Virus record (IMG/VR): IMGVR_UViG_3300027679_000006
Location: 1-57,058 of that record
Length of the DNA stretch: 57,058 bases
Direction: 5' to 3' (one strand)
DNA from: a virus
Taxonomy: Duplodnaviria > Caudoviricetes
The notes under the pieces are model-generated. The model made no database searches. It was not told the DNA's origin and was given only the letters and a program-made list of their open reading frames with translations. Position numbers and translations under genes: made by a program. Below are positions 42,007 through 57,058 of this stretch, in pieces; position 1 is the first letter of the stretch, and every line of letters begins with the position of its first letter.

Positions 42007-42007
42007 A

Positions 42008-44615: not shown

Positions 44616-44712
44616 GGGTATCAGGGGGGTTCTTTCCCAGCGGGAAGTAGGGGGTTGACACTCGATCCTTGCGTTTGGGAGAAAAAATCTAGGTGCAGCC
44701 TTTACACGCCGC

Positions 44713-44742
44713 AACCCCCCGCCCTGAACGGGCGAGGGGGTT
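44713..44742 (-). terminator. hairpin at the convergent junction of replication module and cassette array
   Basis: AACCCCCTCGCCC-GTTCA-GGGCGGGGGGTT on minus strand. Confidence 0.5.
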
Positions 44743-44759
44743 GGGCACTATGAGCGCGC

Positions 44760-44837
44760 CTATAACGCGCCACCTAATAGATCGCCGATAACGCCGCCGA
44801 CAAAAACGACGACGATGATGATGATGAGCACTTCCAC
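44760..44837 (-). CDS. 25-aa hydrophobic micropeptide (cassette A)
   Basis: GGAG-5nt-GTG; MEVLIIIIVVVFVGGVIGDLLGGAL. Confidence 0.5.
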   Translation of the reverse strand: MEVLIIIIVVVFVGGVIGDLLGGAL

Positions 44838-44894
44838 GATTTCTCCATTTCTGGCGGCGACGCGCCGCCCCGAAGGGCGACGCGCCGCGCGCCG

Positions 44895-45152
44895 CTAGAA
44901 CTTGTTTAGCATCTCCACGCGAGCCGCTGCGAGGGCTGCGTGAGCATCGCACGCGGCATCCTGCCGCGTGAATCGCGTGATCGCCGAGCCGTCAAGCGAC
45001 GCTGTGCGCTTCGCTGCGTGCCAAGCGGTTTCCACGATCCACGACGCCGCCGCGCCGCAAGTTCGTGGCGTCTTGCCGAAGGCTTCGTGCCGCACCATTA
45101 CGACTGCGCCGCAAACGCGCGGCTGCTGCTCTGGCAGTTTCGTGATCCTCAT
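44895..45152 (-). CDS. hypothetical Cys/His protein (cassette A)
   Basis: AAGGGGG SD; MRITKLP...CDAHAA. Confidence 0.7.
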   Translation of the reverse strand: MRITKLPEQQPRVCGAVVMVRHEAFGKTPRTCGAAASWIVETAWHAAKRTASLDGSAITRFTRQDAACDAHAALAAARVEMLNKF

Positions 45153-45199
45153 TGTGAACCCCCTTCGTATTGTTGCGCGGGGCATCTCCCCGACTCCTA

Positions 45200-45232
45200 T
45201 ACAATGCCAGACGCCGAAACCTACTATGGAGC
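45200..45232 (-). promoter_or_regulatory. cassette motif copy A
   Basis: GCTCCATAGTAGGTTT-CGGCGTC-TGGCATTGTA. Confidence 0.85.
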
Positions 45233-45313
45233 AGGGGCGCGGCGCGGCGTGCTGCGGCGTGCTGCGGCGTGCGGCATCGCTGCGGTGTCTGGCGCGGTGT
45301 CTGGGGTGTCGCG

Positions 45314-45390
45314 CATTACGCATTACACATAACGGATAACACATAACGGATAACACCTAACGCATAACGGATAACGCATAGGGCATAACG
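45314..45390. repeat. 7-bp tandem array (CATAACN)x11
   Basis: cattacg cattaca cataacg gataaca cataacg gataaca cctaacg cataacg gataacg cataggg cataacg. Confidence 0.9.
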
Positions 45391-45395
45391 AAGAA

Positions 45396-45427
45396 GCGGC
45401 GACGACCCCCGAAGGGATCGCCGCCGC
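45396..45427 (-). terminator. C(UUCG)G hairpin ending cassette B
   Basis: GCGGCGGCGATCCC-TTCG-GGGGTCGTCGCCGC then TTCTT; G-U pairs only on minus strand. Confidence 0.75.
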
Positions 45428-45433
45428 TCTTCT

Positions 45434-45586
45434 TCATCGCACGATGGCGACGACGAGGTGCGCCAAGAAATACGCCGCCGCCGCGCTGATGGCGTACCAC
45501 GCCATACGCCCGACGAAGGCGCGATTCTTGCGCTCCTGCTCAATCTCCGCATAGGTGCGAAGGCTGATGATTGTTTTCCGATTCAT
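45434..45586 (-). CDS. 50-aa membrane-anchored protein (cassette B)
   Basis: GAGGG SD; MNRKTIISLRTY...AWYAISAAAAYFLAHLVVAIVR. Confidence 0.6.
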   Translation of the reverse strand: MNRKTIISLRTYAEIEQERKNRAFVGRMAWYAISAAAAYFLAHLVVAIVR

Positions 45587-45644
45587 ACTTTCCCTCTCTC
45601 TCTGCGACGACGCGCCGCCCCGAAGGGCGACGCGCCGCCGCGCT

Positions 45645-46097
45645 CTACTTTACAAACTCCTCGCCGTTCACAACGACCGACGAGATGCGCTCTAAACCAT
45701 AGGCGCGGTGTGAGTGCCGCTCGCCCTTGCCGTAGCACGACGATCCTTCGCGGGAAGCGTAGGGGCAAGCCGTTGCCTCGCCGTACTCGTTCATCGCGTA
45801 GACGAGGAAGCCGAGCGACTGCGTGCCCTTCTTGGATAGGCGTACTGGATCGCCGCCGCCCCACGCGGGATCGGGGCGACCGCTGACGCGCACGACCGAG
45901 ATCGTGCCGCCGTCTACCTCGTGCGTGCTGATTGTCTGCTGCGCGGCGAAGGTGTGCCCTTCTACGCTCTTGCCCTTTGCGTCAATGGCGCGCTTTACGA
46001 GCACCTTCTCGCTCGTTGGAAGCGTGCTCGCCACGAGGGTGAACACGCGCCCCTTCGCCGCTGCGATTGCGGCGCGGATCTGCTCTGCTGTTGCCAT
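45645..46097 (-). CDS. hypothetical protein, paralog of 52040..52492 (cassette B)
   Basis: AAGGAG SD; 150 aa; shares AKGR, TISVV, EYG.ATACPY...SC....RH.HR. Confidence 0.8.
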   Translation of the reverse strand: MATAEQIRAAIAAAKGRVFTLVASTLPTSEKVLVKRAIDAKGKSVEGHTFAAQQTISTHEVDGGTISVVRVSGRPDPAWGGGDPVRLSKKGTQSLGFLVYAMNEYGEATACPYASREGSSCYGKGERHSHRAYGLERISSVVVNGEEFVK

Positions 46098-46141
46098 AGT
46101 GCGCTCTCCTTCCATACTGCGGGGAAGCCCCCCGACTCCTA

Positions 46142-46174
46142 TACAATGCCACGCCGCCAAACCTACTATGGAGC
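46142..46174 (-). promoter_or_regulatory. cassette motif copy B
   Basis: GCTCCATAGTAGGTTT-GGCGGCG-TGGCATTGTA. Confidence 0.85.
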
Positions 46175-46258
46175 AGGGCGACGAGGGGCGGCGCGGCATC
46201 GCTCGCTGCGTTGTGTCGCCCCTGCTGCGGTGCTGCGCCTCGCCTGTATGAGGTAAGG

Positions 46259-46328
46259 CATAACCCATAACGCATAAGCCATAACGCGTAAGGCATAAGC
46301 CATAACACATAAGACATAAGCCATAAAC
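46259..46328. repeat. 7-bp tandem array (CATAASN)x10
   Basis: cataacc cataacg cataagc cataacg cgtaagg cataagc cataaca cataaga cataagc cataaac. Confidence 0.9.
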
Positions 46329-46370
46329 GAAACGGCGGCGACACCCCCGAAGGGATGCCGCCGCCGCCTC

Positions 46371-46757
46371 TTAGATCGTGCGCCCGTCGTACATCGGGAA
46401 GCCGCCATCGTTGAGCACGCGCTCAATCTTGGCGATTTCCGAATCCGTGAAGCCGCGCAACTCGTCATCGTGTACGAGCGCACAATCTCCCGCGATTGTG
46501 TAATACGGAGCCGCCGATTCTGCAACCGCGCGAACATCCGCCGCCGTCATATTGCGGCGCGGATTCTGTACGAGAAGCCCCTCTTCATCGCACAGGAGCA
46601 CGACAGGCACGCCGCCAATCTTGCCCCGTGATGCAACCTCAACGAGATTGCAACCGATTGCGTTGTAGACATCCTGCAAGCCCTTGCCGTGTTCCGTCTT
46701 CGTGATGCGATGCGTGCCATCTTCTAGCGCGCGAATCACGAACATCAAACCTGCCAT
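46371..46757 (-). CDS. DUF3846-like protein (cassette C)
   Basis: LQ.VY.AIG...VE, CDEEGLL...N..A, IAGD..L motifs; AAGGAGG SD. Confidence 0.7.
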   Translation of the reverse strand: MAGLMFVIRALEDGTHRITKTEHGKGLQDVYNAIGCNLVEVASRGKIGGVPVVLLCDEEGLLVQNPRRNMTAADVRAVAESAAPYYTIAGDCALVHDDELRGFTDSEIAKIERVLNDGGFPMYDGRTI

Positions 46758-46851
46758 AGTGTGCCTCCTTGTTTGTGTGTTTGTGCTCCCCCTATTGGTT
46801 CACCCGCCAGACGCGGGGGGAGCGATCGCGTACTAGCGGAAGCGTCGGCGT

Positions 46852-47070
46852 TTAGCCGATACGAAGCCGCGACCCGACGACCGCCGCGTGCGCCTCGCAG
46901 ATACCGATCTGCGCGCGCCCTGCGATCGTGTAGGTTGCGGGCTTCTCGCATACGCCGCTGTAATCACAGCGACGAGCGCCGATCGTCTTCATCGGCACGA
47001 AGCCGAAGTAGACGGCGCGCTCCGAGCGGATAGCGCGTGCCGCCACCTGCTCGTTGTGCTTGTTGCCCAT
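46852..47070 (-). CDS. small Cys/His protein (cassette C)
   Basis: GGAGG SD; CDYSGVCEKPA...CEAHAA. Confidence 0.7.
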   Translation of the reverse strand: MGNKHNEQVAARAIRSERAVYFGFVPMKTIGARRCDYSGVCEKPATYTIAGRAQIGICEAHAAVVGSRLRIG

Positions 47071-47111
47071 AGTGCCTCCACTAGGTGCTGCGGAATCTCC
47101 GCCGCTATTCA

Positions 47112-47144
47112 TACAATGCCAGACCTCCAAACCTACTATGGAGC
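47112..47144 (-). promoter_or_regulatory. cassette motif copy C
   Basis: GCTCCATAGTAGGTTT-GGAGGTC-TGGCATTGTA. Confidence 0.85.
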
Positions 47145-47214
47145 GGCGTGCGCCGCTGTGCGCGCGTTGCGGCGCGCCGCTTGTCGCTGTTGTTGTGAAT
47201 CTCTCGCGCATACA

Positions 47215-47270
47215 CATAGGGCATAACACATAACGCCTAACACATAAGCCATAACACATAAGCCATAACA
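47215..47270. repeat. 7-bp tandem array x8
   Basis: cataggg cataaca cataacg cctaaca cataagc cataaca cataagc cataaca. Confidence 0.9.
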
Positions 47271-47324
47271 AAGAAGCGGCGACACCCCCGAAGGGATGCC
47301 GCCGCTTGTTGTTGCCGCCTGTTG

Positions 47325-47573
47325 TTAGCGCGCCAGTTCTACCGCTTCTGCGAGGCGTGCCATCGCCGCGCCTTCATCGTAGAACTCCTCGCGCCCAAAG
47401 ATTTCCGCGCCGCCCTGCGGTGTCGTTGTGTCTACCGATAGTTTCTCAAACACTCCAACCTCAACGAGAATCTCAACATCGCCCTTCTCCTGCGCGGTTT
47501 CCTGCCGCGTGTATCGTGCGAAGGTTGTCGTGCCGCCGTTTGTGTGAATCTGATACCAAGTGTTTCGCTTCAT
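47325..47573 (-). CDS. hypothetical protein, paralog of 52940..53170 (cassette D)
   Basis: AAAGGAG SD; NTWYQIHTNG..TTFAR. Confidence 0.75.
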   Translation of the reverse strand: MKRNTWYQIHTNGGTTTFARYTRQETAQEKGDVEILVEVGVFEKLSVDTTTPQGGAEIFGREEFYDEGAAMARLAEAVELAR

Positions 47574-47629
47574 CGTGTTGCTCCTTTCGCTATGGGGTCG
47601 CGGGGCGACAACGCCGCCCCGCTCCCCGA

Positions 47630-47836
47630 CTACCTGCTCTGTGGCTCGTAGGTGTCCATCCACTCGCCGCAAAGTTTCGTGCGCTCTACCGCCTCTGCGC
47701 CCTTCGCAGTCCTGCTGCTCGTTTCTGGGTCGTTAGTCCACGCGCGAACCTGCGCGATGGTTAGTCCATCGGCGATGGTTTCGCTTGGATACCGCCCCGA
47801 CGCAAACACGCGAACGATTCGGAATAGCGTTTCCAT
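47630..47836 (-). CDS. hypothetical protein (cassette D)
   Basis: AAAGGGG SD; 68 aa. Confidence 0.7.
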   Translation of the reverse strand: METLFRIVRVFASGRYPSETIADGLTIAQVRAWTNDPETSSRTAKGAEAVERTKLCGEWMDTYEPQSR

Positions 47837-47892
47837 CCTGTACCCCTTTCGCTATGGGATCGGGGGGCGGCAACGCCGCCCCCCTTCCCGTG

Positions 47893-48090
47893 TTATCGCC
47901 CCGCTAGGGAAGCGATTGCCGCCGCGCCTTCGGCGCAATCCTCGCAGACTGGAATCTTTACGCCTTCTGGCGAGCCATCGTGGATTCGGATGAAAGTTTC
48001 CGCATCCTCTTCGCATCCGTTTAGGAAGTACTCATCGGCGAGGCAACCAGTACCATCCTCAATGTGTCCCTGTCCCTTGATGTAGGGCAT
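47893..48090 (-). CDS. small zinc-finger protein (cassette D)
   Basis: AAGGAG SD; C..C...CEDC. Confidence 0.7.
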   Translation of the reverse strand: MPYIKGQGHIEDGTGCLADEYFLNGCEEDAETFIRIHDGSPEGVKIPVCEDCAEGAAAIASLAGR

Positions 48091-48133
48091 CTTGTTTCTC
48101 CTTCTTTGTGAGAAGCGTCTGCCTCTCTATCTC

Positions 48134-48166
48134 TACAATGCCAGACTCTCAAACCTACTATGGAGC
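48134..48166 (-). promoter_or_regulatory. cassette motif copy D
   Basis: GCTCCATAGTAGGTTT-GAGAGTC-TGGCATTGTA. Confidence 0.85.
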
Positions 48167-48195
48167 GGCGGAGCCGAAGCCCCGCCGCCGATCCC

Positions 48196-48354
48196 TTACT
48201 TTGCGTATCGCCTACGCTTCATCTCCTCGCGGAAGCGTGCCATCGCCTCGCGCTTTGTGAATCCGTAATAAGTAATGGATTCCGTATAACCTTGATGAAT
48301 AGCAGACACAACCCACGCGCCGTTGTGCCATACGCGCGATGCCGTAATCGTCAT
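48196..48354 (-). CDS. 52-aa hypothetical protein (cassette E)
   Basis: AGGAGG SD; MTITASRVWHNGAWVVSAIHQGYTESITYYGFTKREAMARFREEMKRRRYAK. Confidence 0.7.
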   Translation of the reverse strand: MTITASRVWHNGAWVVSAIHQGYTESITYYGFTKREAMARFREEMKRRRYAK

Positions 48355-48418
48355 AACAACCTCCTAGTGTTGGCGGCGGAGCCGAAGCCCCGCCGCCGTT
48401 GTTGGGCGGATGCGCCGC

Positions 48419-48655
48419 CTACGCGTTGTTGCGTTGGCGAACTTCTTCCGCCGCGATAGCGATGAGAGAGTCTACGAGGTACAAGCGAATCTGCTCAACC
48501 GCGAGCAGCCGCTTCTCCACGCAACCCTTCACATCGCACGATGCGATTTCGGCGCACGAGCCTTCTGGCTCGTTGTACACAATCGCCTTGGCGATGCCGA
48601 TGATCGCCGCCTCAATCTGGTGAGGCTCCAACGGGTGATTCTTGCCGTATTGCAT
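48419..48655 (-). CDS. hypothetical protein (cassette E)
   Basis: GAGGAGG SD; 78 aa. Confidence 0.7.
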   Translation of the reverse strand: MQYGKNHPLEPHQIEAAIIGIAKAIVYNEPEGSCAEIASCDVKGCVEKRLLAVEQIRLYLVDSLIAIAAEEVRQRNNA

Positions 48656-48700
48656 ACGACCTCCTCAATGTGCGAGCGGTATCGCCGCTCCCGATGAATA

Positions 48701-48733
48701 CACTATGCCAGACACTCAAACCTACTATGGAGC
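48701..48733 (-). promoter_or_regulatory. cassette motif copy E
   Basis: GCTCCATAGTAGGTTT-GAGTGTC-TGGCATAGTG. Confidence 0.85.
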
Positions 48734-48813
48734 AGGCAACGCAACGAGATACGCAACGCAACGGCGCGCAAACAACAACGAAGAATCTGCGCGCGAGCGC
48801 ATATGCCTATATG

Positions 48814-48855
48814 CGTAAGTCATAACCCATAACGCGTAAGGCATAACAAATAACA
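48814..48855. repeat. 7-bp tandem array x6
   Basis: cgtaagt cataacc cataacg cgtaagg cataaca aataaca. Confidence 0.85.
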
Positions 48856-48893
48856 AAGGGGGGCAACCGCCGAAGCGGTCGCCCCCCTTTTAT

Positions 48894-48953
48894 CTATTCG
48901 CTCAACGAAGCCAAGACCACAAGGATCAGCATCGTTGCGATGATTACTTCCAC
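48894..48953 (-). CDS. 19-aa hydrophobic micropeptide (cassette F)
   Basis: GTG start overlapping upstream ORF end; MEVIIATMLILVVLASLSE. Confidence 0.4.
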   Translation of the reverse strand: MEVIIATMLILVVLASLSE

Positions 48954-49108
48954 TTATCTCGCCGCGCCTCGGCGATCTCACGCTTGCGGTCATCAGCGCG
49001 CTTCTCACGGCGATGCTTCTCGCAGCAATCACCATCAGCAGCAGGTCGCTTCGTCCAACGGACGGAGTGCTCTGGGATGGCGATCTTCTCAACATTTCTC
49101 CGATTCAT
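48944..49108 (-). CDS. 54-aa basic protein (cassette F)
   Basis: AGGAGG SD; MNRRNVEKIAIPEHSVRW...CCEKH. Confidence 0.6.
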   Translation of the reverse strand: MNRRNVEKIAIPEHSVRWTKRPAADGDCCEKHRREKRADDRKREIAEARRDKWK

Positions 49109-49168
49109 ACACCCTCCTATGTGGCTCGCGGCGGCGGAGCCGAAGCCCCGCCGCCGTCCGCCGATTGT

Positions 49169-49498
49169 TTAGGCGACGACTTCTGTCGCCGACTCCGCTA
49201 GTTCCAGAACATCGCTCTGGTCTGCGTTGTCCTCCAACGCGCTGCGAATCTTGGCGATGATTGCCGTCAGTCGCTCGTTCTCGGCGACCACCTCGGCGAC
49301 CATCTCCTCAACCGAGTCCAGAACTTCCTGAACCTCATCGGCGTAGGATTCAGCAGAACCCGCCGAATCACTTGCCGAGTCAGCGTAGGACTGCGCGTCC
49401 TGTGCCTCGGATGCGGCATCCTGCGCCGCTGACGATGCGCGCTCCGCGCTGCGGCGTGCCTCCGCTAGGATGTCCGTGAGTTTCTGTGTGTCGGTCAT
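49169..49498 (-). CDS. acidic Ala/Ser-rich coiled-coil protein (cassette F)
   Basis: GAGGAGG SD; 109 aa. Confidence 0.75.
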   Translation of the reverse strand: MTDTQKLTDILAEARRSAERASSAAQDAASEAQDAQSYADSASDSAGSAESYADEVQEVLDSVEEMVAEVVAENERLTAIIAKIRSALEDNADQSDVLELAESATEVVA

Positions 49499-49544
49499 AA
49501 GACCTCCTCACTTGGGAAGTGATCACAGCACCTCCTCTACTTCA

Positions 49545-49577
49545 TACAATGCCAGACCCTGAAACCTACTATGGAGC
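49545..49577 (-). promoter_or_regulatory. cassette motif copy F
   Basis: GCTCCATAGTAGGTTT-CAGGGTC-TGGCATTGTA. Confidence 0.85.
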
Positions 49578-49661
49578 AGCCTCGCCCACGGATCGCTGCG
49601 ACTCTAACAACGACGAGCCACGGCAATGCGACGCGTGTTGATAAGTTTGTATGCGTATATG

Positions 49662-49703
49662 GATAACTCATAACCCATAACACATAACGCATAGCCCATA
49701 AAC
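49662..49703. repeat. 7-bp tandem array x6
   Basis: gataact cataacc cataaca cataacg catagcc cataaac. Confidence 0.85.
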
Positions 49704-49756
49704 GCAATGAGGGGGAGCAAGAGCCGAAGCCCTCACTCCCCCTCATCACTCCGCGA

Positions 49757-50302
49757 CTAGCGCGAGGTCGCCCCCGCGTACGCCGCGTCGCCCTTCACCC
49801 ACACGGCGAAGGTCATCGCGTCAGCATCGCGCACCCAGAAACTAATCCCCTGCGCGAAGAGGTTAGAGGTCGGGTCAGCGATGACCGTCACCTCACACGG
49901 TAGCGTGCCATCTTCGCACGCTGCCTGAATCTTCACGCCGAGGTCTTGCCCCTCAGTTCGCTCGCCCCAGAGTAGAAGATCCTCTTCTACCTCAGTCCAC
50001 CCGTTCACGAAGACCGTATCGTAATGACCGCGCCACGCTGACGATGCGCGCCACTCACGCTTCCAGTTGGAAGCGTCAACAGGCTCGCCGTACTCAGGAT
50101 CAAGTGCCACGAGATCGCCCAAGATGATTTTGCTCACCTCGCCAATCGGCGTGAACAGCGTGATCATTGAGGCGTGCTCAGTATCGGACTGCCAACACGC
50201 GGAGCAAATCTGATCTTCCAAGATGTTGGAATACTCAGCGTAGTCCGACTCAATCTCTTCGCCACAGCGCGGTGCTGCGCAGATCACTTTATCGCTCTTC
50301 AT
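49757..50302 (-). CDS. hypothetical protein with N-terminal zinc finger (cassette G)
   Basis: GAGGAGG SD; CAAPRC...CSAC; 181 aa, acidic. Confidence 0.75.
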   Translation of the reverse strand: MKSDKVICAAPRCGEEIESDYAEYSNILEDQICSACWQSDTEHASMITLFTPIGEVSKIILGDLVALDPEYGEPVDASNWKREWRASSAWRGHYDTVFVNGWTEVEEDLLLWGERTEGQDLGVKIQAACEDGTLPCEVTVIADPTSNLFAQGISFWVRDADAMTFAVWVKGDAAYAGATSR

Positions 50303-50340
50303 TAGACCTCCTCTGCTGCGGGGAACTTCCCCGATGTATG

Positions 50341-50373
50341 TACTATGCCACGCCGCCAAACCTACTATGGAGC
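50341..50373 (-). promoter_or_regulatory. cassette motif copy G
   Basis: GCTCCATAGTAGGTTT-GGCGGCG-TGGCATAGTA. Confidence 0.85.
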
Positions 50374-51390: not shown

Positions 51391-51599
51391 AGGACTCCCG
51401 TTCCGCCGCAGCCGCAGATGCCATCTTCGCAACTCGCGCCTTCCGAAAGAAGTAAGGCGCACCCGTGCTTCTCAGCGCGGTGCTCCTCGCACGATTCGCA
51501 GTAGGCGTATGGAATACCAGAAGCATTGTTGTCTGCGATGAACGCTGCCTGACCATCAACGCAGAAGTCGCACATCATTGACTCCGTTGGCTTGCTCAT
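51387..51599 (-). CDS. Cys-rich protein (cassette I)
   Basis: AGGAGGAG SD; CDFC, CESC, C..GICGC. Confidence 0.65.
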   Translation of the reverse strand: MSKPTESMMCDFCVDGQAAFIADNNASGIPYAYCESCEEHRAEKHGCALLLSEGASCEDGICGCGGTGVL

Positions 51600-51647
51600 T
51601 GCTCCTCCTTCCGCGTCGGGGAGAGGCTCGCGCCTCTCCCCTTCGCA

Positions 51648-51929
51648 CTAATCCTCGTCTGGCTCGCCGCCGACGAACGCCGCCAAGTAGAGGGACTGAA
51701 TCACCACCCAAGCAGGAACTTGCGAACCATACTTGCGGTGCTCCGCGCCCTCTGGCATCTCCACCATCTCGTCTGACTCACCCGCTTCCGCAAGTGCGAG
51801 TGCCGCCTTCGCAGGGGCAATCATCATCAGCGGGACTGGCGGGTAGCAGTTCGTCGTGAAGTGCCAATGAAGTTTCGTGTCCAAGTCCAACTCCGTATCC
51901 GCGATACCGAGTGCCGTTGCGTATCCCAT
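51648..51929 (-). CDS. hypothetical protein (cassette I)
   Basis: AAGGAGG SD; L.WH...N.YPPVP. Confidence 0.75.
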   Translation of the reverse strand: MGYATALGIADTELDLDTKLHWHFTTNCYPPVPLMMIAPAKAALALAEAGESDEMVEMPEGAEHRKYGSQVPAWVVIQSLYLAAFVGGEPDED

Positions 51930-51973
51930 ACGAACCTCCTTCGCTACTCGTCAGGGAATCTCCCTGACTACTT

Positions 51974-52006
51974 CATAATGCCAGAGTCTAAAACCTACTA
52001 TGGAGC
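51974..52006 (-). promoter_or_regulatory. cassette motif copy I
   Basis: GCTCCATAGTAGGTTT-TAGACTC-TGGCATTATG. Confidence 0.85.
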
Positions 52007-52039
52007 AGCGGGGGGAGGCGCAACCCTCCCCCCTCATCA

Positions 52040-52492
52040 TCAGGCGAACGACTCGCCTGCGATGATGATCTCCTGAACGCGCCCTGCGTTCACCGAGCGA
52101 TGCGCGTGTCGCTTGCCGCGCAACTCGCACGACGCACCCTCTTTGCCAGAGTACGGACACGCCGTAGCGAAGCCGTATTCCTCTGGCGCACCACCGACGA
52201 TGCTGAACGACAACCCACCATCTTTGCCAATGTGGAAGCCGTCTACGCCGTAGTGCTTGTCCAACTGACCGACAATCTGAACGACGCTGATTGTCCACCC
52301 GCGCTCATCGGTGCGAGTGCTCAATGTCTTGACCATCGGGATCGCCGCCTTCGCGTCAGGTGCGACGCTTGCCGCCGCCTTTGCGATGCGCCGCGCCATC
52401 TCGGCGGGACTGACTGGTGCGGTTTCCGTGATGACCTTGACGAAGCGACCCTTCGCCGAGCGCATCACCTTGACCACTTGTTCGTGCTCCAT
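52040..52492 (-). CDS. hypothetical protein, paralog of 45645..46097 (cassette J)
   Basis: AAGGAGG SD; 150 aa. Confidence 0.8.
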   Translation of the reverse strand: MEHEQVVKVMRSAKGRFVKVITETAPVSPAEMARRIAKAAASVAPDAKAAIPMVKTLSTRTDERGWTISVVQIVGQLDKHYGVDGFHIGKDGGLSFSIVGGAPEEYGFATACPYSGKEGASCELRGKRHAHRSVNAGRVQEIIIAGESFA

Positions 52493-52532
52493 CTGAACCT
52501 CCTTGCTACGCAGGGAACCTCCCTGACTTCTC

Positions 52533-52565
52533 TACAATGCCAGAGTCGCAAACCTACTATGGAGC
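52533..52565 (-). promoter_or_regulatory. cassette motif copy J
   Basis: GCTCCATAGTAGGTTT-GCGACTC-TGGCATTGTA. Confidence 0.85.
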
Positions 52566-52575
52566 GAGAAGCCGA

Positions 52576-52634
52576 TGCCATCTGTATGGCACGAGGATTG
52601 CCATCTGTATGGCACGAGTGCCAAGTGTGTGGCA
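52576..52634. repeat. three tandem TGCCA-N6-TGGCA palindromes
   Basis: 52576-52591, 52599-52614, 52619-52634. Confidence 0.85.
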
Positions 52635-52648
52635 CAACTCTCGCGCGC

Positions 52649-52725
52649 TATTACGCATTAGGCATAACCCATAACACATAACACATAAGTCATAACGCAT
52701 AAGGCATAACCAATAACAAATAAAA
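52649..52725. repeat. 7-bp tandem array x11
   Basis: tattacg cattagg cataacc cataaca cataaca cataagt cataacg cataagg cataacc aataaca aataaaa. Confidence 0.9.
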
Positions 52726-52765
52726 AGGGGAGCCGCACCAGACACCACATCTGGTACGACTCCCC
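52722..52765 (-). terminator. intrinsic terminator of cassette K
   Basis: GGGGAGTCGTACCAGAT-loop-GTCTGGTGCGGCTCCCC then TTTTTA. Confidence 0.75.
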
Positions 52766-52769
52766 AAGC

Positions 52770-52935
52770 CTATCGCGGCTGTGACGCTTATCCCATTTCT
52801 GAGGCGGTCATTGGGCTTTCGCTTGTCCGCTGCTGACTGAGCCCCCTCTGGTTAGGAGTCCGACCAATCAGTCCTTATCGTCGCGGGTAGTTCTTCGTCT
52901 ACCAACTAGCCGCCCTGCACGCGGCACGGATACAC
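52770..52935 (-). ncRNA. candidate structured non-coding RNA
   Basis: About 165 nt with no credible ORF between last gene and terminator; nested helices and a GAAA tetraloop. Confidence 0.45.
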
Positions 52936-52939
52936 AGGA

Positions 52940-53170
52940 TTACTCAGCGAGAGTTCGTGCAATCTTCACGCGGTTGATTGCCGCCGTGAGTTCATCATAC
53001 TCCTCTTCGCCGAAGACCTCAATCAACTTGTTCACGCTGTCCGCTTGCATCTTCTCAAAGACAAAGATCGCTGCACCTGCATCGCTCTTGCCTTCGTAGA
53101 AGCGAGCGAAGGTTGTGACCGCTCCGTTCGTGTGAATCTGATACCAAGTGTTCGCTTGTTCTCCGTACAT
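52940..53170 (-). CDS. hypothetical protein, paralog of 47325..47573 (cassette K)
   Basis: AAAGGAG SD; NTWYQIHTNGAVTTFAR. Confidence 0.75.
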   Translation of the reverse strand: MYGEQANTWYQIHTNGAVTTFARFYEGKSDAGAAIFVFEKMQADSVNKLIEVFGEEEYDELTAAINRVKIARTLAE

Positions 53171-53221
53171 CTTGTTCTCCTTTCTTGCGAGGGGAGCGGC
53201 GAGTGCCGCCCCCCTCGTAGT

Positions 53222-53665
53222 TTACTTCGCCGCTGTGAGGTCAGCGAGTTGCTGACTCAGGTCGCGGTAATCGTACTTGCCATCTTCGTTGAACAACTTG
53301 TCCACGAAGGGGCGAATCTCGTCTGAGATGTCCTTGAACTTCGTCGGCTCACCGATGTCGCTCAACGCCTCAGCCCAACCCGCTGGCAGGTCGCTCTCCT
53401 CGTAGTAGTCGCCGATGACTGCTACGCGGTCGCCGTGCCAACGCCCCTTGAACACGCCGTTCGTGAACTCAGGGAAGTCCGAGTTGTCGTTTGCCCAGTC
53501 GCCGCCGCCGCGCGCCTCCTTGTAGGCACAGAGCACATACAGGATGTCGGCAAGCGAACCGCCGCCGTACCCTGAGTGCTCACGCTGCTTCGCGCCGAAG
53601 CCGAGGTCGTGCGGATTCACAACCTCCAACTTGTCTAGATTGAAGAGTGAGTGATACTGACCCAT
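53222..53665 (-). CDS. hypothetical protein (cassette K)
   Basis: AAGGAGG SD; MGQY...NLDK.E...GRW.GDRV..IGDY. Confidence 0.75.
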   Translation of the reverse strand: MGQYHSLFNLDKLEVVNPHDLGFGAKQREHSGYGGGSLADILYVLCAYKEARGGGDWANDNSDFPEFTNGVFKGRWHGDRVAVIGDYYEESDLPAGWAEALSDIGEPTKFKDISDEIRPFVDKLFNEDGKYDYRDLSQQLADLTAAK

Positions 53666-53676
53666 CGTCTACCTCC

Positions 53677-54063
53677 TTACGCTGTGGCTACGAGTTGCGA
53701 GTCAAACGACCCGCTTCGTGCCGAGAACATTGCCCAAAGGTCGCGCGCTTCCTGCTCGCTCAATGGGCGAGCCGCAAGACCTTCCGTGTTGGCGAACAGA
53801 ACGACATCACCTTTGACATCGTGGCTGCTGCCGTTTGAGAACATCCGAAGCAGCGTTGCCCACTCGTTCACAACGCACCACGGCTTGAACTCCCGAACGG
53901 AGTCCGCAACCATCACCCACTTCACACCGCGCATTGAGCCAACCCCAATGATGTCGGTGTAGTCCGCGCCGATGGTCTTGTTGATTGCCTCGTACGAACC
54001 TTCGCTAAACGGCACTAGTTCGGCACGAGTGTGCTCTGCCCGAATCACGATTGCGAACCCCAT
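53677..54063 (-). CDS. DUF3846-like protein (cassette K)
   Basis: I..TIG, VNEWAT, VKGDVVL; same length as 46371..46757; AGGAGG SD. Confidence 0.6.
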   Translation of the reverse strand: MGFAIVIRAEHTRAELVPFSEGSYEAINKTIGADYTDIIGVGSMRGVKWVMVADSVREFKPWCVVNEWATLLRMFSNGSSHDVKGDVVLFANTEGLAARPLSEQEARDLWAMFSARSGSFDSQLVATA

Positions 54064-54072
54064 ACGAACCTC

Positions 54073-54141
54073 CTATCTCTCAACCCGAAGCAGCCAACCA
54101 AACAGCAGCATCAGGAGGATTGCTAAGGTCGTGTCGTTCAT
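54073..54141 (-). CDS. 22-aa hydrophobic micropeptide (cassette K)
   Basis: GAGGAGG SD directly after cassette leader; MNDTTLAILLMLLFGWLLRVER. Confidence 0.65.
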   Translation of the reverse strand: MNDTTLAILLMLLFGWLLRVER

Positions 54142-54174
54142 AGACACCTCCTCTGTCGGAACTTCCGACTCACT

Positions 54175-54207
54175 TACAATGCCAGACTTCTAAACCTACT
54201 ATGGAGC
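54175..54207 (-). promoter_or_regulatory. cassette motif copy K
   Basis: GCTCCATAGTAGGTTT-AGAAGTC-TGGCATTGTA. Confidence 0.85.
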
Positions 54208-54278
54208 AGGCTCAGGGGCAGCGGCAAGGAGGGGTCAGCCGAGACCAACCCAACCCTGCCGTGCCCTTGCGTATATGT

Positions 54279-54320
54279 CATTAGGCATAACCCATAACGC
54301 ATAACGCATAACCAATAACT
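54279..54320. repeat. 7-bp tandem array x6
   Basis: cattagg cataacc cataacg cataacg cataacc aataact. Confidence 0.85.
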
Positions 54321-54618
54321 AGTTCGCTTTGCGCTTCCAATAACCCACAGCAGCGCGAACCGCCGTGCCGCTCTGCGCGCCAATCTTCACGGCAACATCG
54401 TCGTAGGACATCCCACCACTCAACATCAACACAATCTTCTCGTGTTCGTATCGGGATGGTCGCCCTGCTTTCGGTTGACCGAGACCGTTGCGCTTTGCGA
54501 ATTGCGAGACCCATTGGCGAGACACGCCGAACTCGTCGGCAATGTCTCGCTGTCTGGTTCCACTCTTTAACTTGCCGATGACGACTGACTCGTCAAGGAC
54601 AACCTTCTTGCCCATCAC
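54319..54618 (-). CDS. tandem HTH DNA-binding protein (cassette L)
   Basis: RQRDIADEFGVSRQWVSQF, GRPS linker, MSYDDVAVKIG. Confidence 0.75.
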   Translation of the reverse strand: MMGKKVVLDESVVIGKLKSGTRQRDIADEFGVSRQWVSQFAKRNGLGQPKAGRPSRYEHEKIVLMLSGGMSYDDVAVKIGAQSGTAVRAAVGYWKRKAN

Positions 54619-54998
54619 AGAGCACCGACAGTCTTCTGTGCCACCGTGTGCGTCTCGTAGTCTGGTTCCCTGTCGAGGTTGTACACATAGACCGAAGCCT
54701 CTGCCTCTGGGTCTGCTGCGTACACCGCCTCGACGATCTTCTCGCCGAAGCGATCAGACAGAACATCCCACGCGACTGACAACGACTTCGTGTAGACATC
54801 GAACGAGTAGGTTGGATAGTCATCCCACGCGCTCGTGTCTGCGAAGGTGTAATCAGAACCGAACATCGCGTTCTTATCTGATGTTGCGTCTGGAAGCCCA
54901 GTCCCGAGAAGCGCAAGGTGTACGGCAGAGACCACCGCATCCTTCTTCTCGTGACTGACTCCCTTGACCGTAATGTTCACTTCTACTGATGCGCTCAC
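54615..54998 (-). CDS. hypothetical protein (cassette L)
   Basis: GAGGAGG SD, GTG start; 127 aa. Confidence 0.7.
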   Translation of the reverse strand: MSASVEVNITVKGVSHEKKDAVVSAVHLALLGTGLPDATSDKNAMFGSDYTFADTSAWDDYPTYSFDVYTKSLSVAWDVLSDRFGEKIVEAVYAADPEAEASVYVYNLDREPDYETHTVAQKTVGAL

Positions 54999-55360
54999 TT
55001 GCTCACCTCCTCTTCGCTACACGCGCAGTCAAACTTCGGATTGAAGCAATGACTACACGGATGTTCGTCTGTTTTGTGTACGGAGAGAATCCCTCCACAC
55101 ATCGACGACATTGGATTGAAGCACCACCCCTGTTGCGCTGCTGCCCTGTCGGACATAAACGGCGGATGGAACTCGCACTCACACGGAGCGCAGTCCAAGC
55201 AGTACAAGGAGTAGCCCTCTGGAACTCCATCCTTGTACTGATTGAAATCAAGCAGGTCGAACCGCGTATTCGGTTCGCCGTTCCAAGTACCGACGACCTT
55301 CTCGTCGTCGTAGAACACCATCGTGCCGCAGTCGCAGCACTTGTCCATCTGTCCGCTCAT
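54995..55360 (-). CDS. Cys-rich protein (cassette L)
   Basis: GAGGAGG SD; CCDC, CLDC, CEC, CSHC, CAC. Confidence 0.65.
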   Translation of the reverse strand: MSGQMDKCCDCGTMVFYDDEKVVGTWNGEPNTRFDLLDFNQYKDGVPEGYSLYCLDCAPCECEFHPPFMSDRAAAQQGWCFNPMSSMCGGILSVHKTDEHPCSHCFNPKFDCACSEEEVSK

Positions 55361-55878
55361 ACAACCTCCTCTTCCTTCTCCTCTGGCAAGCAACCATCGC
55401 AGTACGGATTGCCGTTCATCGTCAGCACGCCGTCTGCTGTTGCCCAAATCACATCGTCTTCGGTGAGGTCGGTGTCGCACTCGTGGCACGAGTACTCCTT
55501 CTCCTCATCCTCTTCGACATCCTCTTCCTCTTCGTCGGGAACGAAGACCACTTCGAGACGCTCAATGCGACCCTCGTGGTTGTAGTGCGCGTAAACTGGA
55601 TACTGACCATCGCCGTAGCCGCTGCTCACCGCTACCGCGCTGCCGTTGCCCAACTCACCCGCGCTGTTATCCGAGAGCGTCGCAGCGCAAGCACCGCTGT
55701 ACGAGTACTCAAACTCGTTCGCGGTCTTCTGTGCCTCGACCTCTCCCTCTACCCACTCGAAGCCGTCAGACGACTTCTTGCCGTAGTCGCTGAGATAGCA
55801 AGGGTCGCCGACCATCACCATCCCCGCATCAACACCGACTCGCCCGACGAGCCACTTGCCGTTCTTGCGATCTGCCAT
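55357..55878 (-). CDS. DUF4241-like protein with C-terminal zinc ribbon (cassette L)
   Basis: VGVDAG...DPCY, SSGYGDG.YPVY motifs; CHEC...CDGC; AAGGAGG SD. Confidence 0.65.
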   Translation of the reverse strand: MADRKNGKWLVGRVGVDAGMVMVGDPCYLSDYGKKSSDGFEWVEGEVEAQKTANEFEYSYSGACAATLSDNSAGELGNGSAVAVSSGYGDGQYPVYAHYNHEGRIERLEVVFVPDEEEEDVEEDEEKEYSCHECDTDLTEDDVIWATADGVLTMNGNPYCDGCLPEEKEEEVV

Positions 55879-55922
55879 TTGTGTGCCTCCTTCCAACTAC
55901 GAGGGAACGCCCCTCACTCAAC

Positions 55923-55955
55923 TACAATGCCACACCCTGAAACCTACTATGGAGC
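55923..55955 (-). promoter_or_regulatory. cassette motif copy L
   Basis: GCTCCATAGTAGGTTT-CAGGGTG-TGGCATTGTA. Confidence 0.85.
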
Positions 55956-56027
55956 AAGAAGAAAGGGGGGAGCCAAGCCGAAGCCTGACTCCCCCCTTGT
56001 TCTTATGTGATCTTCTAGCGCGTTATG

Positions 56028-56062
56028 GATTAGGCATAACCCATAACCCATAACCGATAACT
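56028..56062. repeat. 7-bp tandem array x5
   Basis: gattagg cataacc cataacc cataacc gataact. Confidence 0.85.
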
Positions 56063-56877
56063 CAACCCCCGACGATGCCGCCGAAGTGCTCATCGCAGAA
56101 CGCTTCCATCGCGTTCGCGGGAACCTTGTCGTAGTCGCGCTCATAACCACGCGACCCATCTGCCTCTGCGATGTACGCCTCGTCTGGCAACGAATCGCCA
56201 AACTCGTAGTCATCACGCGAGACCTCTTCGCCGTTGAGGTAGACCACCTGACCTGCGTACCCCATACCGCCTTCGCAATAGCGATGCGTAATGGAGAGCG
56301 TTGGAAACTGCTTTGCGAGAGCAGCGACCACAGGCTCGGCAGGCGACCACGCCGTGTCGAAGTTGTACGAGGTATCACCCTCGATTGTCTGATCGTTGTC
56401 TACTCGGTCGTGCCACACTTCCGCCGCGTTCCACTTGGCTCCCCAGTTCTTCACATTCCAGTTGTACCACCAGTCTGGGTGTGAAGAAATCTTCGGAGCG
56501 TCGCACTTTGGGCAGACTTCCGAGCCGCCAAACATCTTCTCCACTACAACTTCGATTGTGCCGTTGTCGAGATTCTTCTTCACGACTGGGAGACCATCGA
56601 CAGCCCAGTAGCCTTCCTGTGGCTCAAAGCCGTGTTCCTTCTCGTACTCGTGTCCCTCGGCTCCCTTCACCATTTCTTTGGTGATGACAAACTCTGGGTG
56701 GCAACCGCAAAGGAAATCATTCTGACTCTCGTTGGCTGCGTAGAACTTGTTCTCTGGGACTGGGACAATCTTGGAGAAGTCGAACCCATCGTCTTCACCC
56801 TTGACTGCCTCGATTAGCCTGACGATCTCTGCCTCGTTGCCTGTAATGTCTAGTTGATTCGCGCACCAGTTAGGCAT
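56062..56877 (-). CDS. DUF1281/YubB-like ferredoxin-fold protein (cassette M)
   Basis: MPNWC.N.L.I.G, WY.WN..NWG.KW, FDTAWSP, FP.L.....Y.E.GM motifs. Confidence 0.8.
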   Translation of the reverse strand: MPNWCANQLDITGNEAEIVRLIEAVKGEDDGFDFSKIVPVPENKFYAANESQNDFLCGCHPEFVITKEMVKGAEGHEYEKEHGFEPQEGYWAVDGLPVVKKNLDNGTIEVVVEKMFGGSEVCPKCDAPKISSHPDWWYNWNVKNWGAKWNAAEVWHDRVDNDQTIEGDTSYNFDTAWSPAEPVVAALAKQFPTLSITHRYCEGGMGYAGQVVYLNGEEVSRDDYEFGDSLPDEAYIAEADGSRGYERDYDKVPANAMEAFCDEHFGGIVGG

Positions 56878-56920
56878 TTGCTTCCTCCTTCCAAACTGCG
56901 GGACATCCCCGCTACTTCTC

Positions 56921-56953
56921 TACAATGCCATAGCCTCAAACCTACTATGGAGC
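56921..56953 (-). promoter_or_regulatory. cassette motif copy M
   Basis: GCTCCATAGTAGGTTT-GAGGCTA-TGGCATTGTA. Confidence 0.85.
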
Positions 56954-57031
56954 ACTCTATACATTATGTAATGTTCGCCAAAGAGCAATGCGCCGAGAAG
57001 CCCGTAGGCAACCCGACGCATACTCTTTATG

Positions 57032-57058
57032 CATGATGCATAACGCATAACACATTAG
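57032..57058. repeat. 7-bp tandem array, truncated by window end
   Basis: catgatg cataacg cataaca cattag. Confidence 0.7.

Follow-up and report, generated by a model that had tools for sequence, protein, structure and literature searches.

Private boxes on the constant core of a putative promoter in a candidate tandem array of small-gene transcription units from an uncultivated freshwater phage

How is an array of small phage genes, set group by group behind copies of a single motif, read by a polymerase? The question is raised by the IMG/VR virus record IMGVR_UViG_3300027679_000006, a linear sequence of 57,058 bp that was analysed in its entirety (the window, labelled G000 in comparisons). 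On its minus strand, 13 copies of YGYTCCATAGTAGGTTT-N7-TGGCATNNN, spaced 559–1748 bp apart, head 13 units (U1 to U13), which form one unbroken array of ~12 kb that runs in a single direction. The second half of this 33-bp motif reads TGGCAT(T/A)(G/A)T, and 17 + 6 of its bases are perfectly conserved over the 13 copies. A scan of the whole record with a 27-nt degenerate pattern, allowing up to three mismatches, returned these 13 sites, all with zero mismatches, against an expectation of 0 from 100 shuffles; all have the same orientation, none is reversed, and none lies outside the array. The region is probably a tandem set of at least 13 autonomous transcription units, of the kind represented by the promoter-stem-loop (PeSL) cassettes of T4-type phages and by host-takeover modules.

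The units share one order: the motif, a stem-loop, an AAGGAGG-type ribosome-binding site, and one to four small genes. There are 29 genes of 22–271 codons in the array, and a GGAGG-like sequence is found at most 16 nt upstream of the start in 27 of the 28 genes listed, the exception being a helix-turn-helix (HTH) gene at 54615, the start of which overlaps the stop of the preceding gene. Terminator-like sites are about twice as frequent as expected (19 found, 9.6 ± 3.2 expected), and the seven best have GC-rich stems of 14–19 bp, CTTCGG loops, and T-rich tails, and are located on the minus strand at the joints between units. Arrays of tandem heptads precede 11 of the 13 motifs, and U5 and U10 have a terminator hairpin only, which abuts the motif. 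Two further units beyond the end of the record are seen in relatives. The original prediction, made from the letters of this DNA alone, had described this layout: 13 motif positions with a single orientation and the above spacing, a leader hairpin, a strong Shine-Dalgarno (SD) sequence and one to four genes per unit, about 30 small genes altogether, and a hairpin and/or heptads before the next motif. Repeat families and the pattern scan agree with it on every motif, and the counts of hairpins (13 of 13), SD sequences, genes, and heptad joints bear out the remainder.

The nature of the motif can be read from relatives of the phage. These were gathered by protein-anchored searches and include G001 (58 kb), G002 (70 kb), G005 (a 37-kb contig, read as L048 and L011), L010, L060, and two complete genomes, G003 (83 kb) and G004 (85 kb). 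Every relative has an array of the same design with homologous cargo; 15 cargo families are common to G003 and G004, and several are also present in G000. The joints of G003 and G004 consist of a terminator, a hairpin with a variable stem, TAGAAC, TTGAC-N17-TAnAAT, a leader hairpin, and AAGGAGG, and their predicted promoters are of the consensus host sigma-70 type. With +1 defined as the seventh base after the -10 hexamer, the leader hairpin begins at +1 or +2 in all 20 leaders of G003 and G004. With CATNNT as the hexamer, 41 of 41 leaders of G000, G001, G002, and G005 have a hairpin that begins between +1 and +7; the hairpin thus occupies the expected place in 61 of 61 leaders over six genomes. 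All 13 leaders of G000 have a minimum free energy of -8 kcal/mol or lower and a first pair by +7, as do 660 of 2000 random 34-nt windows from the same strand. Four canonical sigma-70 sites are found in the region, where 5.3 are expected, and all 13 joints lack one. From the consensus promoters and the hairpin spacing of the relatives it follows that TGGCATNNT sits at the place of a -10 hexamer with a TGn extension. Therefore, the conserved TGGCATNNT reads as an extended -10 element (TGn + CATNNT) of a putative promoter, and a transcript started there would open with a stem-loop 0–6 nt from its 5' end. Stem-loops at the 5' terminus stabilise bacterial mRNAs. Contigs of the array are present in RNA libraries (29 of 30 bins in metatranscriptome X15 and 16 of 30 in X16), where carry-over of DNA is possible.

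In G003 and G004 the perfect hairpin of variable stem sequence, which has a GCTCCGGC- or GCCGCGGC-type loop, forms a stereotyped upstream element that differs from that of G000; it is followed by the TAGAAC, 0–6 nt before the -35 hexamer. Two other assignments of the G000 motif were rejected. TGGCAT is not a sigma-54 element, because on inspection the distance from GG to GC misfits both placements of -24/-12. The -7 element of Bacteroidota (TAnnTTTG) can be found in the upstream part of the G000 motif, but other types of this part lack it, and the use of strong SD sequences and the GC content of 54% contradict it.

The motif is bipartite: the constant extended -10 is preceded by a 17-bp box, which is located approximately -39 to -23 from the hexamer in G000. 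Other boxes lie at approximately -39 to -27, which is likewise the -35 position, and box-type units have no recognisable -35 hexamer. A search of viral metagenomes found the exact G000 motif in none of 2.9 million viral contigs, because the relatives bear other boxes before the same TGGCAT. One family, TCGGTGGATT, is shared by G001, G005, and L060; its full form is TTCGGTGGATT in G001 and G005 (13 copies, and two more on upstream units) and GGTCGGTGGATT in L060. The box of G002 belongs to the CGGTGGGATCG family, with the full form CCTTAKCGGTGGGATCG, and that of L010, TCATAGSSAGCG, is of the CATAG type like that of G000. Another CATAG-type box was recognised at loose contig ends from another sample; an exact scan of the viral contigs for the fourth box type, seen in loose contig ends, gave no match. 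In orthologous joints of G000 and G005, near-identity starts at TGGCAT and extends past the leader into the cargo, and the sequence upstream cannot be aligned; at the U5 joint only ~25–30 bp between the conserved terminator and TGGCAT have been replaced. Copies of the box are identical or nearly so inside each genome. This uniformity, together with the switches between genomes, indicates that the boxes evolve in concert within a genome.

A lineage-specific box calls for an equally specific reader; therefore, G000 and G001 were compared for outlier genes. Most backbone proteins of the two phages are 91–100% identical. The outliers are the tail fibre (56% identity) and the tape measure protein (42%), which are far more diverged than the remaining backbone, two small structural genes, and an island of two genes at 39.15–39.75 kb. 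The island is ~5 kb from the array, and its first gene is hypervariable between near-identical backbones. The 103-aa product of this gene (39153–39464) combines a CxxC...CxxC knuckle with a long helix and an HTH motif, and is matched by the Pfam family HTH_23 and weakly by Sigma70_r4; 36 homologues are listed, several of them on contigs of 83–91 kb, and some source annotations name homologues 'sigma subunit'. The second gene (39451–39747) encodes an acidic protein of 98 aa that belongs to no family. Products of seven genes from 39686 to 44194 of G000 are 90–100% identical to those of G001, G005, and L060 and 80–92% identical to those of L010. The 103-aa protein reverses this order, with 84% identity to L010 and 60–67% to G001, G005, and L060, and its acidic neighbour is 51% identical to that of L010 and 28% identical or unmatched in the others. 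The distribution of the boxes is the same: G000 and L010 have the CATAG type, G001, G005, and L060 have TCGGTGGATT, and G002, which has a third allele of the pair, has CGGTGGGATCG. The pair is absent from G003 and G004, where the promoters are canonical. The box family follows this gene pair and neither the backbone nor the cargo. For the U12 cargo, G000 shares 93% identity with G001 and G005 and ~75% with L010, despite the grouping of its box with L010, and the replication modules of L060 and G001 are 97–100% identical to that of G000, yet their box is of another type. Except for L060, further loci that include the first gene of the pair are too short to reach the array.

It is inferred that the gene pair directs or gates the host polymerase at the box, in the manner of MotA and AsiA of T4 but without homology to them. 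If the pair does read the box, activation is somewhat favoured over repression. The loss of the -35 hexamer in every unit and the weak -10 (C at -12, three of six positions matching TATAAT) favour a positive role. A complex prediction for the HTH protein and its acidic neighbour scored 0.00, which counts neither way. The candidate reader gene has no SD sequence, and a TTGACG-17-CATACT site (39116–39155, plus strand) ends 8 nt before its ATG; its message may be leaderless and early, although promoter-like sites are not enriched around the gene. The HTH protein encoded within the array (54615–54319) was rejected as the reader of the box, because its G005 counterpart is 91% identical although the box of that genome differs.

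The heptads are confined to the array and to one strand. With up to one mismatch allowed, GTTATGNGTTATG has 43 matches, all on the minus strand and all within 45321–57051, whereas 0.08 are expected. Tandem Repeats Finder detected period-7 GTTATGN arrays of 3–11 copies with super-periods of 14 and 21 bp and a few degenerate or inverted terminal units. Period-7 arrays are likewise confined to one strand in G001 and G002, and the same heptad sequence is used in G000, G001, G002, G005, L010, and L060, despite their differing boxes; it is lacking in G003 and G004. The distance from the end of the array to the -10 hexamer is 102–122 bp at the 11 heptad joints of G000 and 102–124 bp at all 43 heptad joints of six genomes; of 50 joints in total, 7 lack heptads within 200 bp. 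The sequence of this spacer is not conserved between G000 and G005. A spacer that is conserved in length but not in sequence points to an element that would act at the DNA level on the downstream promoter from a set distance. Because the heptads lie 3' of the terminator of the upstream unit in most joints, little of the array should be transcribed. The geometry thus points to heptads that belong to the promoter downstream and not to the tail of the cassette upstream, and they probably bind a protein. In the same pattern as the heptads, the 98-aa double-HTH protein of the array occurs in G000, G002 (56% identity), and G005 (91%) but not in G003 or G004. As a lead only, it is a candidate heptad reader, the tandem HTH motifs of which could read two successive direct heptads.

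Similar repeats occur outside this phage group. Unrelated viral contigs of low GC content (34–41%; L080, L081/L129, and L085/L130) have (G/A)TTATGA arrays in numerous intergenic positions, often immediately 3' of stop codons and on a strand that seemingly matches the flanking genes. Among the matches listed, a three-heptad pattern in genome contigs L139–L218 is found mainly in Bacteroidota and Nostocales as simple (GTTATGA)n, and names no host.

Comparison of the arrays shows that the cassettes have been reshuffled. Relative to G000, G002 has U8 before U7, U11 before U10, and an extra first unit; G005 has U11 before U10 and the three U10 genes split over two units. The 15 families common to G003 and G004 are arranged in very different orders and groupings. 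Blocks of homology run from TGGCAT to the terminator or the heptads. Array cargo of G000 and G002 is 80–96% identical, and their structural and replication genes are 66–77% identical; for several units, G000 and G001 have the opposite pattern. This mismatch between cargo and backbone identity indicates that cassettes are transferred from one lineage to another. In contigs from other samples, precisely the U11 cassette is skipped between two heptad arrays (46298 to 47274), a single gene is lost at an internal hairpin joint (47316 to 47630), or the heptad arrays of distant units are joined, and gene-level insertions and deletions of relatives are also located at such internal joints. Contig joints that go back in the array exist as well and are indistinguishable from arrangements in related strains. 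These skipped and joined contigs may represent the arrangements of other strains, and cannot prove excision. An exonuclease, a single-stranded DNA-binding protein (SSB), and RusA are encoded beside the array and could supply the recombination machinery. The gene order of the relatives is not fixed, and breakpoints fall at the joints; therefore, the idea of shuffling at the joints, put forward in the original prediction, stands. That prediction of a modular, shuffled array of stereotyped expression cassettes was supported, but it missed the bipartite nature of the motif, the variation of the box, the co-variation of the box with a small HTH gene, and the association of the heptads with the downstream promoter.

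These features can be combined into one explanation, which is considered likely as a whole. A host polymerase of the sigma-70 type would use TGGCATNNT as an extended -10, with the box replacing the -35 hexamer. The transcript would start ~7 nt after the hexamer and fold at once into a 5'-terminal stem-loop, which probably protects its 5' end; the strong AAGGAGG would follow, then one to four small genes, and a GC-rich intrinsic terminator would close the unit. The box would be a private address read by the Zn-ribbon/HTH protein and its acidic partner. The heptads would serve as DNA-level upstream elements of the next promoter, probably bound by a protein, for which the product of 54615–54319 is the candidate. 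The repeated joints may double as recombination sites at which cassettes are permuted, lost, and exchanged between lineages. A bolder version is offered tentatively: the array may be written in a switchable private dialect, in which the two-gene module re-addresses the host polymerase, module and boxes are swapped together, gene conversion keeps the 13–15 boxes in step, and the heptads, ~10–11 helical turns upstream, dock an array-encoded regulator.

Several points weigh against this explanation. CATNNT with C at -12 is a poor -10 hexamer for Escherichia coli, the consensus of which may not be that of the host. The AlphaFold model of the 103-aa protein is moderate (pLDDT 65), and a fold search with it returned generic HTH matches, none at E ≤ 0.001. 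Its recognition helix, GVSRQRVYQ, is invariant across three box families, so that the protein might read the constant TGGCAT. The co-variation of box and gene pair comprises six genomes and three box families. Two predicted starts, 50336 and 55917, coincide with ends of contigs from RNA libraries, but the latter is the end of a DNA contig as well; therefore, the contig ends may be assembly breaks, and they were not used as evidence. If a phage factor is needed, the array would be delayed-early and not immediate-early. The homologous arrays of G003 and G004 are ready for the host polymerase, which argues for a repressor at the box. Finally, the missing third, approximately, of the genome could encode another polymerase or sigma factor.

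Repression is the basis of the rival that survives best, although it is rather unlikely. The host polymerase alone would read the extended -10, which would make the units immediate-early, and the box would be an operator at which the phage HTH protein acts later as a shut-off repressor. Such control would resemble that of anti-CRISPR promoters by Aca proteins, the C1 operators of P1, and the stoperators of cluster A mycobacteriophages. Stoperators and C1 sites are numerous, asymmetric, and set in one orientation, and belong to temperate phages with an immunity repressor and an integration or maintenance module. The 13 motif copies share the single orientation; the consensus host promoters of G003 and G004, which have no such factor, suggest an ancestral state read by the host; and a protein bound to the box, which overlaps the -35 region, would stand in the way of the polymerase. 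A host-type promoter sequence, the TTGACG-17-CATACT site, lies just upstream of the factor gene. The best local fold matches of the 103-aa protein include a cluster A immunity repressor (probability 0.90 over 37 residues, E = 1.6) and ArdK on direct repeats (E = 0.51), neither of which is significant. However, Phage_integrase and Resolvase have no match in any of five records of the group, two of them complete, unlike in the stoperator phages, and an immunity repressor is therefore unlikely. A core with no -35 and three of six matches to TATAAT would be weak, though the units carry every other mark of high expression, and repression leaves the loss of the -35 in every unit unexplained.

It is improbable that the 33-bp motif is the promoter of a phage polymerase or sigma factor encoded in the unsequenced third, with a box that co-evolves as in the T7 group. 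In favour of this reading, 17 + 6 bases are perfectly conserved over the 13 copies, a typical trait of phage-specific promoters; the record is estimated by CheckV to be 66% complete; and all box-type contigs break within the array or just upstream of it. Neither Sigma70_r2 nor a T7-type RNA_pol domain has a match in the five records; the negative for RNA_pol is weak, because its control also found nothing anywhere. The constant TGn + CATNNT at the canonical distance from the hairpin fits a -10 of the sigma-70 family, and the gene with which the box co-varies lies within the record. A virion RNA polymerase of the N4 or crAss type was considered for the open reading frame (ORF) of 5,545 aa (9308–25945, minus strand) and rejected, since the ORF has no polymerase match in Pfam or PHROG and no sequence match in the PDB, and its homologues of 3,100–5,500 aa, on contigs of 83–91 kb, carry the tape-measure domain PF20155. 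In this respect the phage differs from N4-like and crAss-like phages with virion polymerases. If the length of the tail scales with that of the tape measure, the virion would have an exceptionally long tail.

Little more can be said for a host factor, an alternative sigma or activator, that reads the box in a different host for each phage, with the HTH gene as a bystander, and this too is improbable. The divergence of the tail fibre and the tape measure between G000 and G001 does suggest different hosts or strains. A separate host factor would be needed for each of at least four box types with a constant -10, and the box follows a phage gene pair against the ancestry of backbone and cargo; L060 and G001 share a box and have replication modules almost identical to that of G000, which has another. 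That a single long early transcript is processed at the motif and hairpin, as happens at the RNase III sites between early genes of T7, is very improbable: a stable hairpin follows each motif, the units all point in the same direction, and RNA-library contigs cover 29 of 30 bins in run X15, but the motifs come after strong terminators, the exact motif position is occupied by consensus promoters in relatives, and a box upstream of the hairpin that is swapped while hairpin and leader stay identical would be odd for an RNA site.

The cargo that the putative promoters would express has few Pfam matches. Among the 27 array proteins scanned, five reach a Pfam cut-off (DUF1281_C, DUF4241, HTH_23, Alanine_zipper, and DUF3846), one is a Zn ribbon below the threshold, and 21 have no match at E ≤ 0.01. 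The families DUF1281, DUF4241, and DUF3846 had been named from the sequence and were recovered above their cut-offs, and the Zn finger is the sub-threshold ribbon; DUF6891, also named, has no match at E ≤ 0.01 among the 27 proteins. Several cargo proteins are Cys-rich, and three are short hydrophobic peptides. By analogy with the hyperplastic regions of T4 and the SPO1 module, a role in host takeover or counter-defence is a reasonable guess; a literature search that combined the cargo DUFs with anti-defence terms found no link. The features of the array and its surroundings are listed in Table 1.

Table 1. Features of the array and associated elements. Promoters, +1 positions, and terminator-like hairpins are predicted; coordinates refer to the window unless a relative is named.
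Feature	Coordinates	Strand	Details
U1 promoter	56922-56954	-	box 56938-56954, N7, extended -10 56922-56930; +1 56915; leader hairpin 56898-56912
U1 cargo	56062-56877	-	271 aa; DUF1281_C (Api92-like) domain, 52.2 bits, cut-off 22.8
U2 promoter	55924-55956	-	+1 55917; hairpin 55901-55915
U2 cargo	54319-55878	-	4 genes
U2 gene	55878-55357	-	173 aa, DUF4241
U2 gene	55360-54995	-	121 aa, Cys-rich
U2 gene	54998-54615	-	127 aa
U2 gene	54615-54319	-	98 aa, two HTH motifs, HTH_23, no SD
U3 promoter	54176-54208	-	+1 54169; hairpin 54155-54169
U3 cargo	52940-54141	-	4 genes
U3 gene	54141-54073	-	22-aa hydrophobic peptide
U3 gene	54063-53677	-	128 aa
U3 gene	53665-53222	-	147 aa
U3 gene	53170-52940	-	76 aa
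U4 promoter	52534-52566	-	+1 52527; hairpin CAGGGAggtTCCCTG from +3
U4 cargo	52040-52492	-	150 aa, paralogue of U12 protein
U5 promoter	51975-52007	-	+1 51968; no heptads, terminator hairpin abuts box
U5 cargo	51256-51929	-	3 genes
U5 gene	51929-51648	-	93 aa
U5 gene	51599-51387	-	70 aa, Cys-rich
U5 gene	51390-51256	-	44 aa, Cys-rich
U6 promoter	51124-51156	-	+1 51117
U6 cargo	50528-51081	-	2 genes
U6 gene	51081-50935	-	48 aa, Zn-ribbon-like, below Pfam cut-off
U6 gene	50938-50528	-	136 aa
U7 promoter	50342-50374	-	+1 50335
U7 cargo	49757-50302	-	181 aa
U8 promoter	49546-49578	-	+1 49539; hairpin sequesters decoy GGAGG
U8 cargo	48944-49498	-	2 genes
U8 gene	49498-49169	-	109 aa, alanine-zipper-like
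U8 gene	49108-48944	-	54 aa
U9 promoter	48702-48734	-	+1 48695
U9 cargo	48196-48655	-	2 genes
U9 gene	48655-48419	-	78 aa
U9 gene	48354-48196	-	52 aa
U10 promoter	48135-48167	-	+1 48128; no heptads, terminator hairpin abuts box
U10 cargo	47325-48090	-	3 genes with internal hairpin + CCATAGCGAAAGG joints between them
U10 gene	48090-47893	-	65 aa
U10 gene	47836-47630	-	68 aa
U10 gene	47573-47325	-	82 aa
U11 promoter	47113-47145	-	+1 47106
U11 cargo	46371-47070	-	2 genes
U11 gene	47070-46852	-	72 aa
U11 gene	46757-46371	-	128 aa, DUF3846
U12 promoter	46143-46175	-	+1 46136
U12 cargo	45434-46097	-	2 genes
U12 gene	46097-45645	-	150 aa
U12 gene	45586-45434	-	50 aa, hydrophobic C-terminus
U13 promoter	45201-45233	-	+1 45194
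U13 cargo	44760-45152	-	2 genes
U13 gene	45152-44895	-	85 aa
U13 gene	44837-44760	-	25-aa hydrophobic peptide
Array-end hairpin	near 44694-44740		
Heptads upstream of U1	57038-57058	-	cut by record end
Heptads upstream of U2	56034-56061	-	~4 units
Heptads upstream of U3	54285-54319	-	~5 units
Heptads upstream of U4	52662-52724	-	~9 units
Heptads upstream of U6	51233-51260	-	3-4 units
Heptads upstream of U7	50450-50485	-	5 units
Heptads upstream of U8	49661-49701	-	~5.6 units
Heptads upstream of U9	48813-48857	-	~6 units
Heptads upstream of U11	47221-47270	-	7 units
Heptads upstream of U12	46251-46327	-	10-11 units
Heptads upstream of U13	45312-45390	-	~11 units
Terminator-like hairpin	55963-55998	-	16 bp, CTTCGG loop, abuts U2 box
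Terminator-like hairpin	52727-52765	-	18 bp + T-run, U3 end
Terminator-like hairpin	51168-51199	-	14 bp, U5/U6 joint
Terminator-like hairpin	50482-50523	-	19 bp, U6 end
Terminator-like hairpin	48855-48890	-	16 bp, U8 end
Terminator-like hairpin	47274-47307	-	15 bp, U10 end
Terminator-like hairpin	45394-45429	-	16 bp, U12 end
Promoter-less internal joint	47583-47628		
Promoter-less internal joint	47845-47890		
Promoter-less internal joint	53675-53720		
Candidate box reader	39153-39464	+	103 aa, Zn-ribbon + HTH protein
Neighbour of candidate reader	39451-39747	+	98 aa, acidic
Thioredoxin gene	44271-44615	+	faces array-end hairpin
Canonical-promoter array, G003	35.8-45.4 kb		L031-L035
Canonical-promoter array, G004	1.3-11.6 kb		L036

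Inside cassettes, each promoter-less joint is made up of a GC-rich hairpin and, immediately ahead of the following start codon, CCATAGCGAAAGG(A/G)G. A 16-bp palindrome of the TGCCATCTGTATGGCA type is repeated three times in tandem (52576–52638) directly upstream of the U4 box only, and one related palindrome is found at the U4 joint of G005; the element looks like a unit-specific operator. At the end of U3, ~210 nt of non-coding sequence (52727–52940, minus strand) are conserved in G002 and G003 (79% in G003) and covered by the deepest RNA-library contig (X16, depth 25.6). The stretch has no Rfam match above the threshold, and may be a small RNA or a structured 3' untranslated region. The window as a whole contains no known RNA families and no tRNAs.

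The phage that carries the array is uncultivated, lives in freshwater, is long-tailed, and has no kinship to T4. It has no nucleotide match among 50,697 phage records, and the identity of its portal protein to those of isolates is at most 26%; sequence of the array is present in runs of 18 studies of freshwater metagenomes. Head genes for the major capsid protein, protease, portal, and adaptor lie outside the array, and a tail fibre of 2,207 aa with a C-terminal Peptidase_S74 chaperone is encoded at 2670–9293 on the minus strand. The plus strand has a replication and recombination block of exonuclease, replication initiator, DnaC-like loader, RusA, SSB, and thioredoxin, which converges with the array at ~44.7 kb. 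In the portal ORF (35650–37854, plus strand, 734 aa), the C-terminal residues 490–620 match polynucleotide-kinase families of PHROG. Plus-strand ORFs, one of 373 aa, are nested in the minus-strand structural module at 27829–29482; they are 82–91% identical in G001 and G002 and absent from G003 and G004.

In T4-type phages, PeSL joints of terminator and promoter are repeated among small, mostly orphan genes of a plastic region; insertions, deletions, replacements, and changes of order at these joints distinguish close relatives, and neighbouring repeats can recombine and release mini-circles (Arbiol et al. 2010, PMC2839356; Comeau et al. 2014, PMC4122927). The array has the same composite joints, and the differences between relatives map to them; G003 and G004, with a stem-loop, a consensus sigma-70 promoter, and a leader hairpin, come closest, and make PeSL the apt analogue that it had been proposed to be. 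By contrast, G000 has a 17-bp private box in place of the -35 half, no consensus early promoter at the 13 joints, a heptad array at a fixed upstream distance, and a stem-loop that would open every transcript; its array is uninterrupted for ~12 kb in one direction, and the phage is not kin of T4. In the middle promoters of T4, the MotA box, to which the activator binds, occupies the -35 position, and the partner AsiA remodels region 4 of sigma. The predicted arrangement in G000 is similar in combining a -10 for the host sigma-70 with a phage box for the -35, and a small DNA binder with an acidic partner (PMC6755090, PMC2988021). MotA_activ (PF09114) and AsiA (PF09010) have no match in the five records at E ≤ 1, a weak negative, because no control genome reached the cut-off. 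The differences from MotA and AsiA are the lack of homology, a longer box that differs between near-identical phages, and the status of the pair as a candidate.

The host-takeover module of SPO1 lies in the terminal redundancy and has several dedicated host sigma-A promoters and strong ribosome-binding sites. The array shares the strong ribosome-binding sites and the multiple promoters, which in its case are predicted and non-canonical. Both crowd some two dozen small genes of early type into a dense cluster (PMC6873191, PMC10531801). The omega protein (ParB) of plasmid pSM19035 binds contiguous 7-bp operators, which also form the centromere, near promoters and needs at least four heptads (PMC9499535). 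The heptads of G000 are likewise contiguous, direct with a few inverted, and near predicted promoters, in arrays of 3–11 units. They differ in sequence, in their position ~100 bp upstream and not overlapping the core promoter, and in their number of at least 11 arrays per genome; Omega_Repress (PF07764) has no match in the five records, and no ribbon-helix-helix match was found among the 27 scanned cargo proteins. Intergenic TAACTGA heptamers, a puzzle of bacterial genomics ever since they were first reported, are described from Beggiatoaceae, Cyanobacteria, and Bacteroidetes (PMC4679880), and heptamer repeats near promoters from Nostoc (bioRxiv 10.1101/2022.06.06.494920). Both resemble the phage heptads in being tandem, intergenic only, and gene-oriented. 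The bacterial heptamers lie mostly a few nucleotides from start codons and are discussed as sites at the RNA level, whereas the phage heptads are 102–124 bp from the -10 and mostly 3' of terminators. An array of promoter-terminator cassettes is thus known; the constant core with private -35 boxes, the co-varying HTH pair, and the distance-locked heptads are new.

The array extends the cassette design of T4-type phages to an unrelated and widespread group of freshwater phages. The group provides a natural series of orthogonal boxes on a constant core, each apparently matched to an allele of the 103-aa protein. The series bears on how a new promoter specificity can evolve without at least 13 promoters being broken at once, and would offer compact parts for synthetic biology. 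The cargo of 29 genes, with its high proportion of proteins that have no Pfam match, is a reasonable place to seek host-takeover and counter-defence proteins. In this small genome, the heptads keep a constant distance from defined putative promoters and candidate binders are few, so that the function of such repeats is testable. If the array is indeed written in a switchable dialect, these phages would provide natural orthogonal sets of promoters and factors, and their heptads the first functional context for the intergenic heptamers of bacteria.

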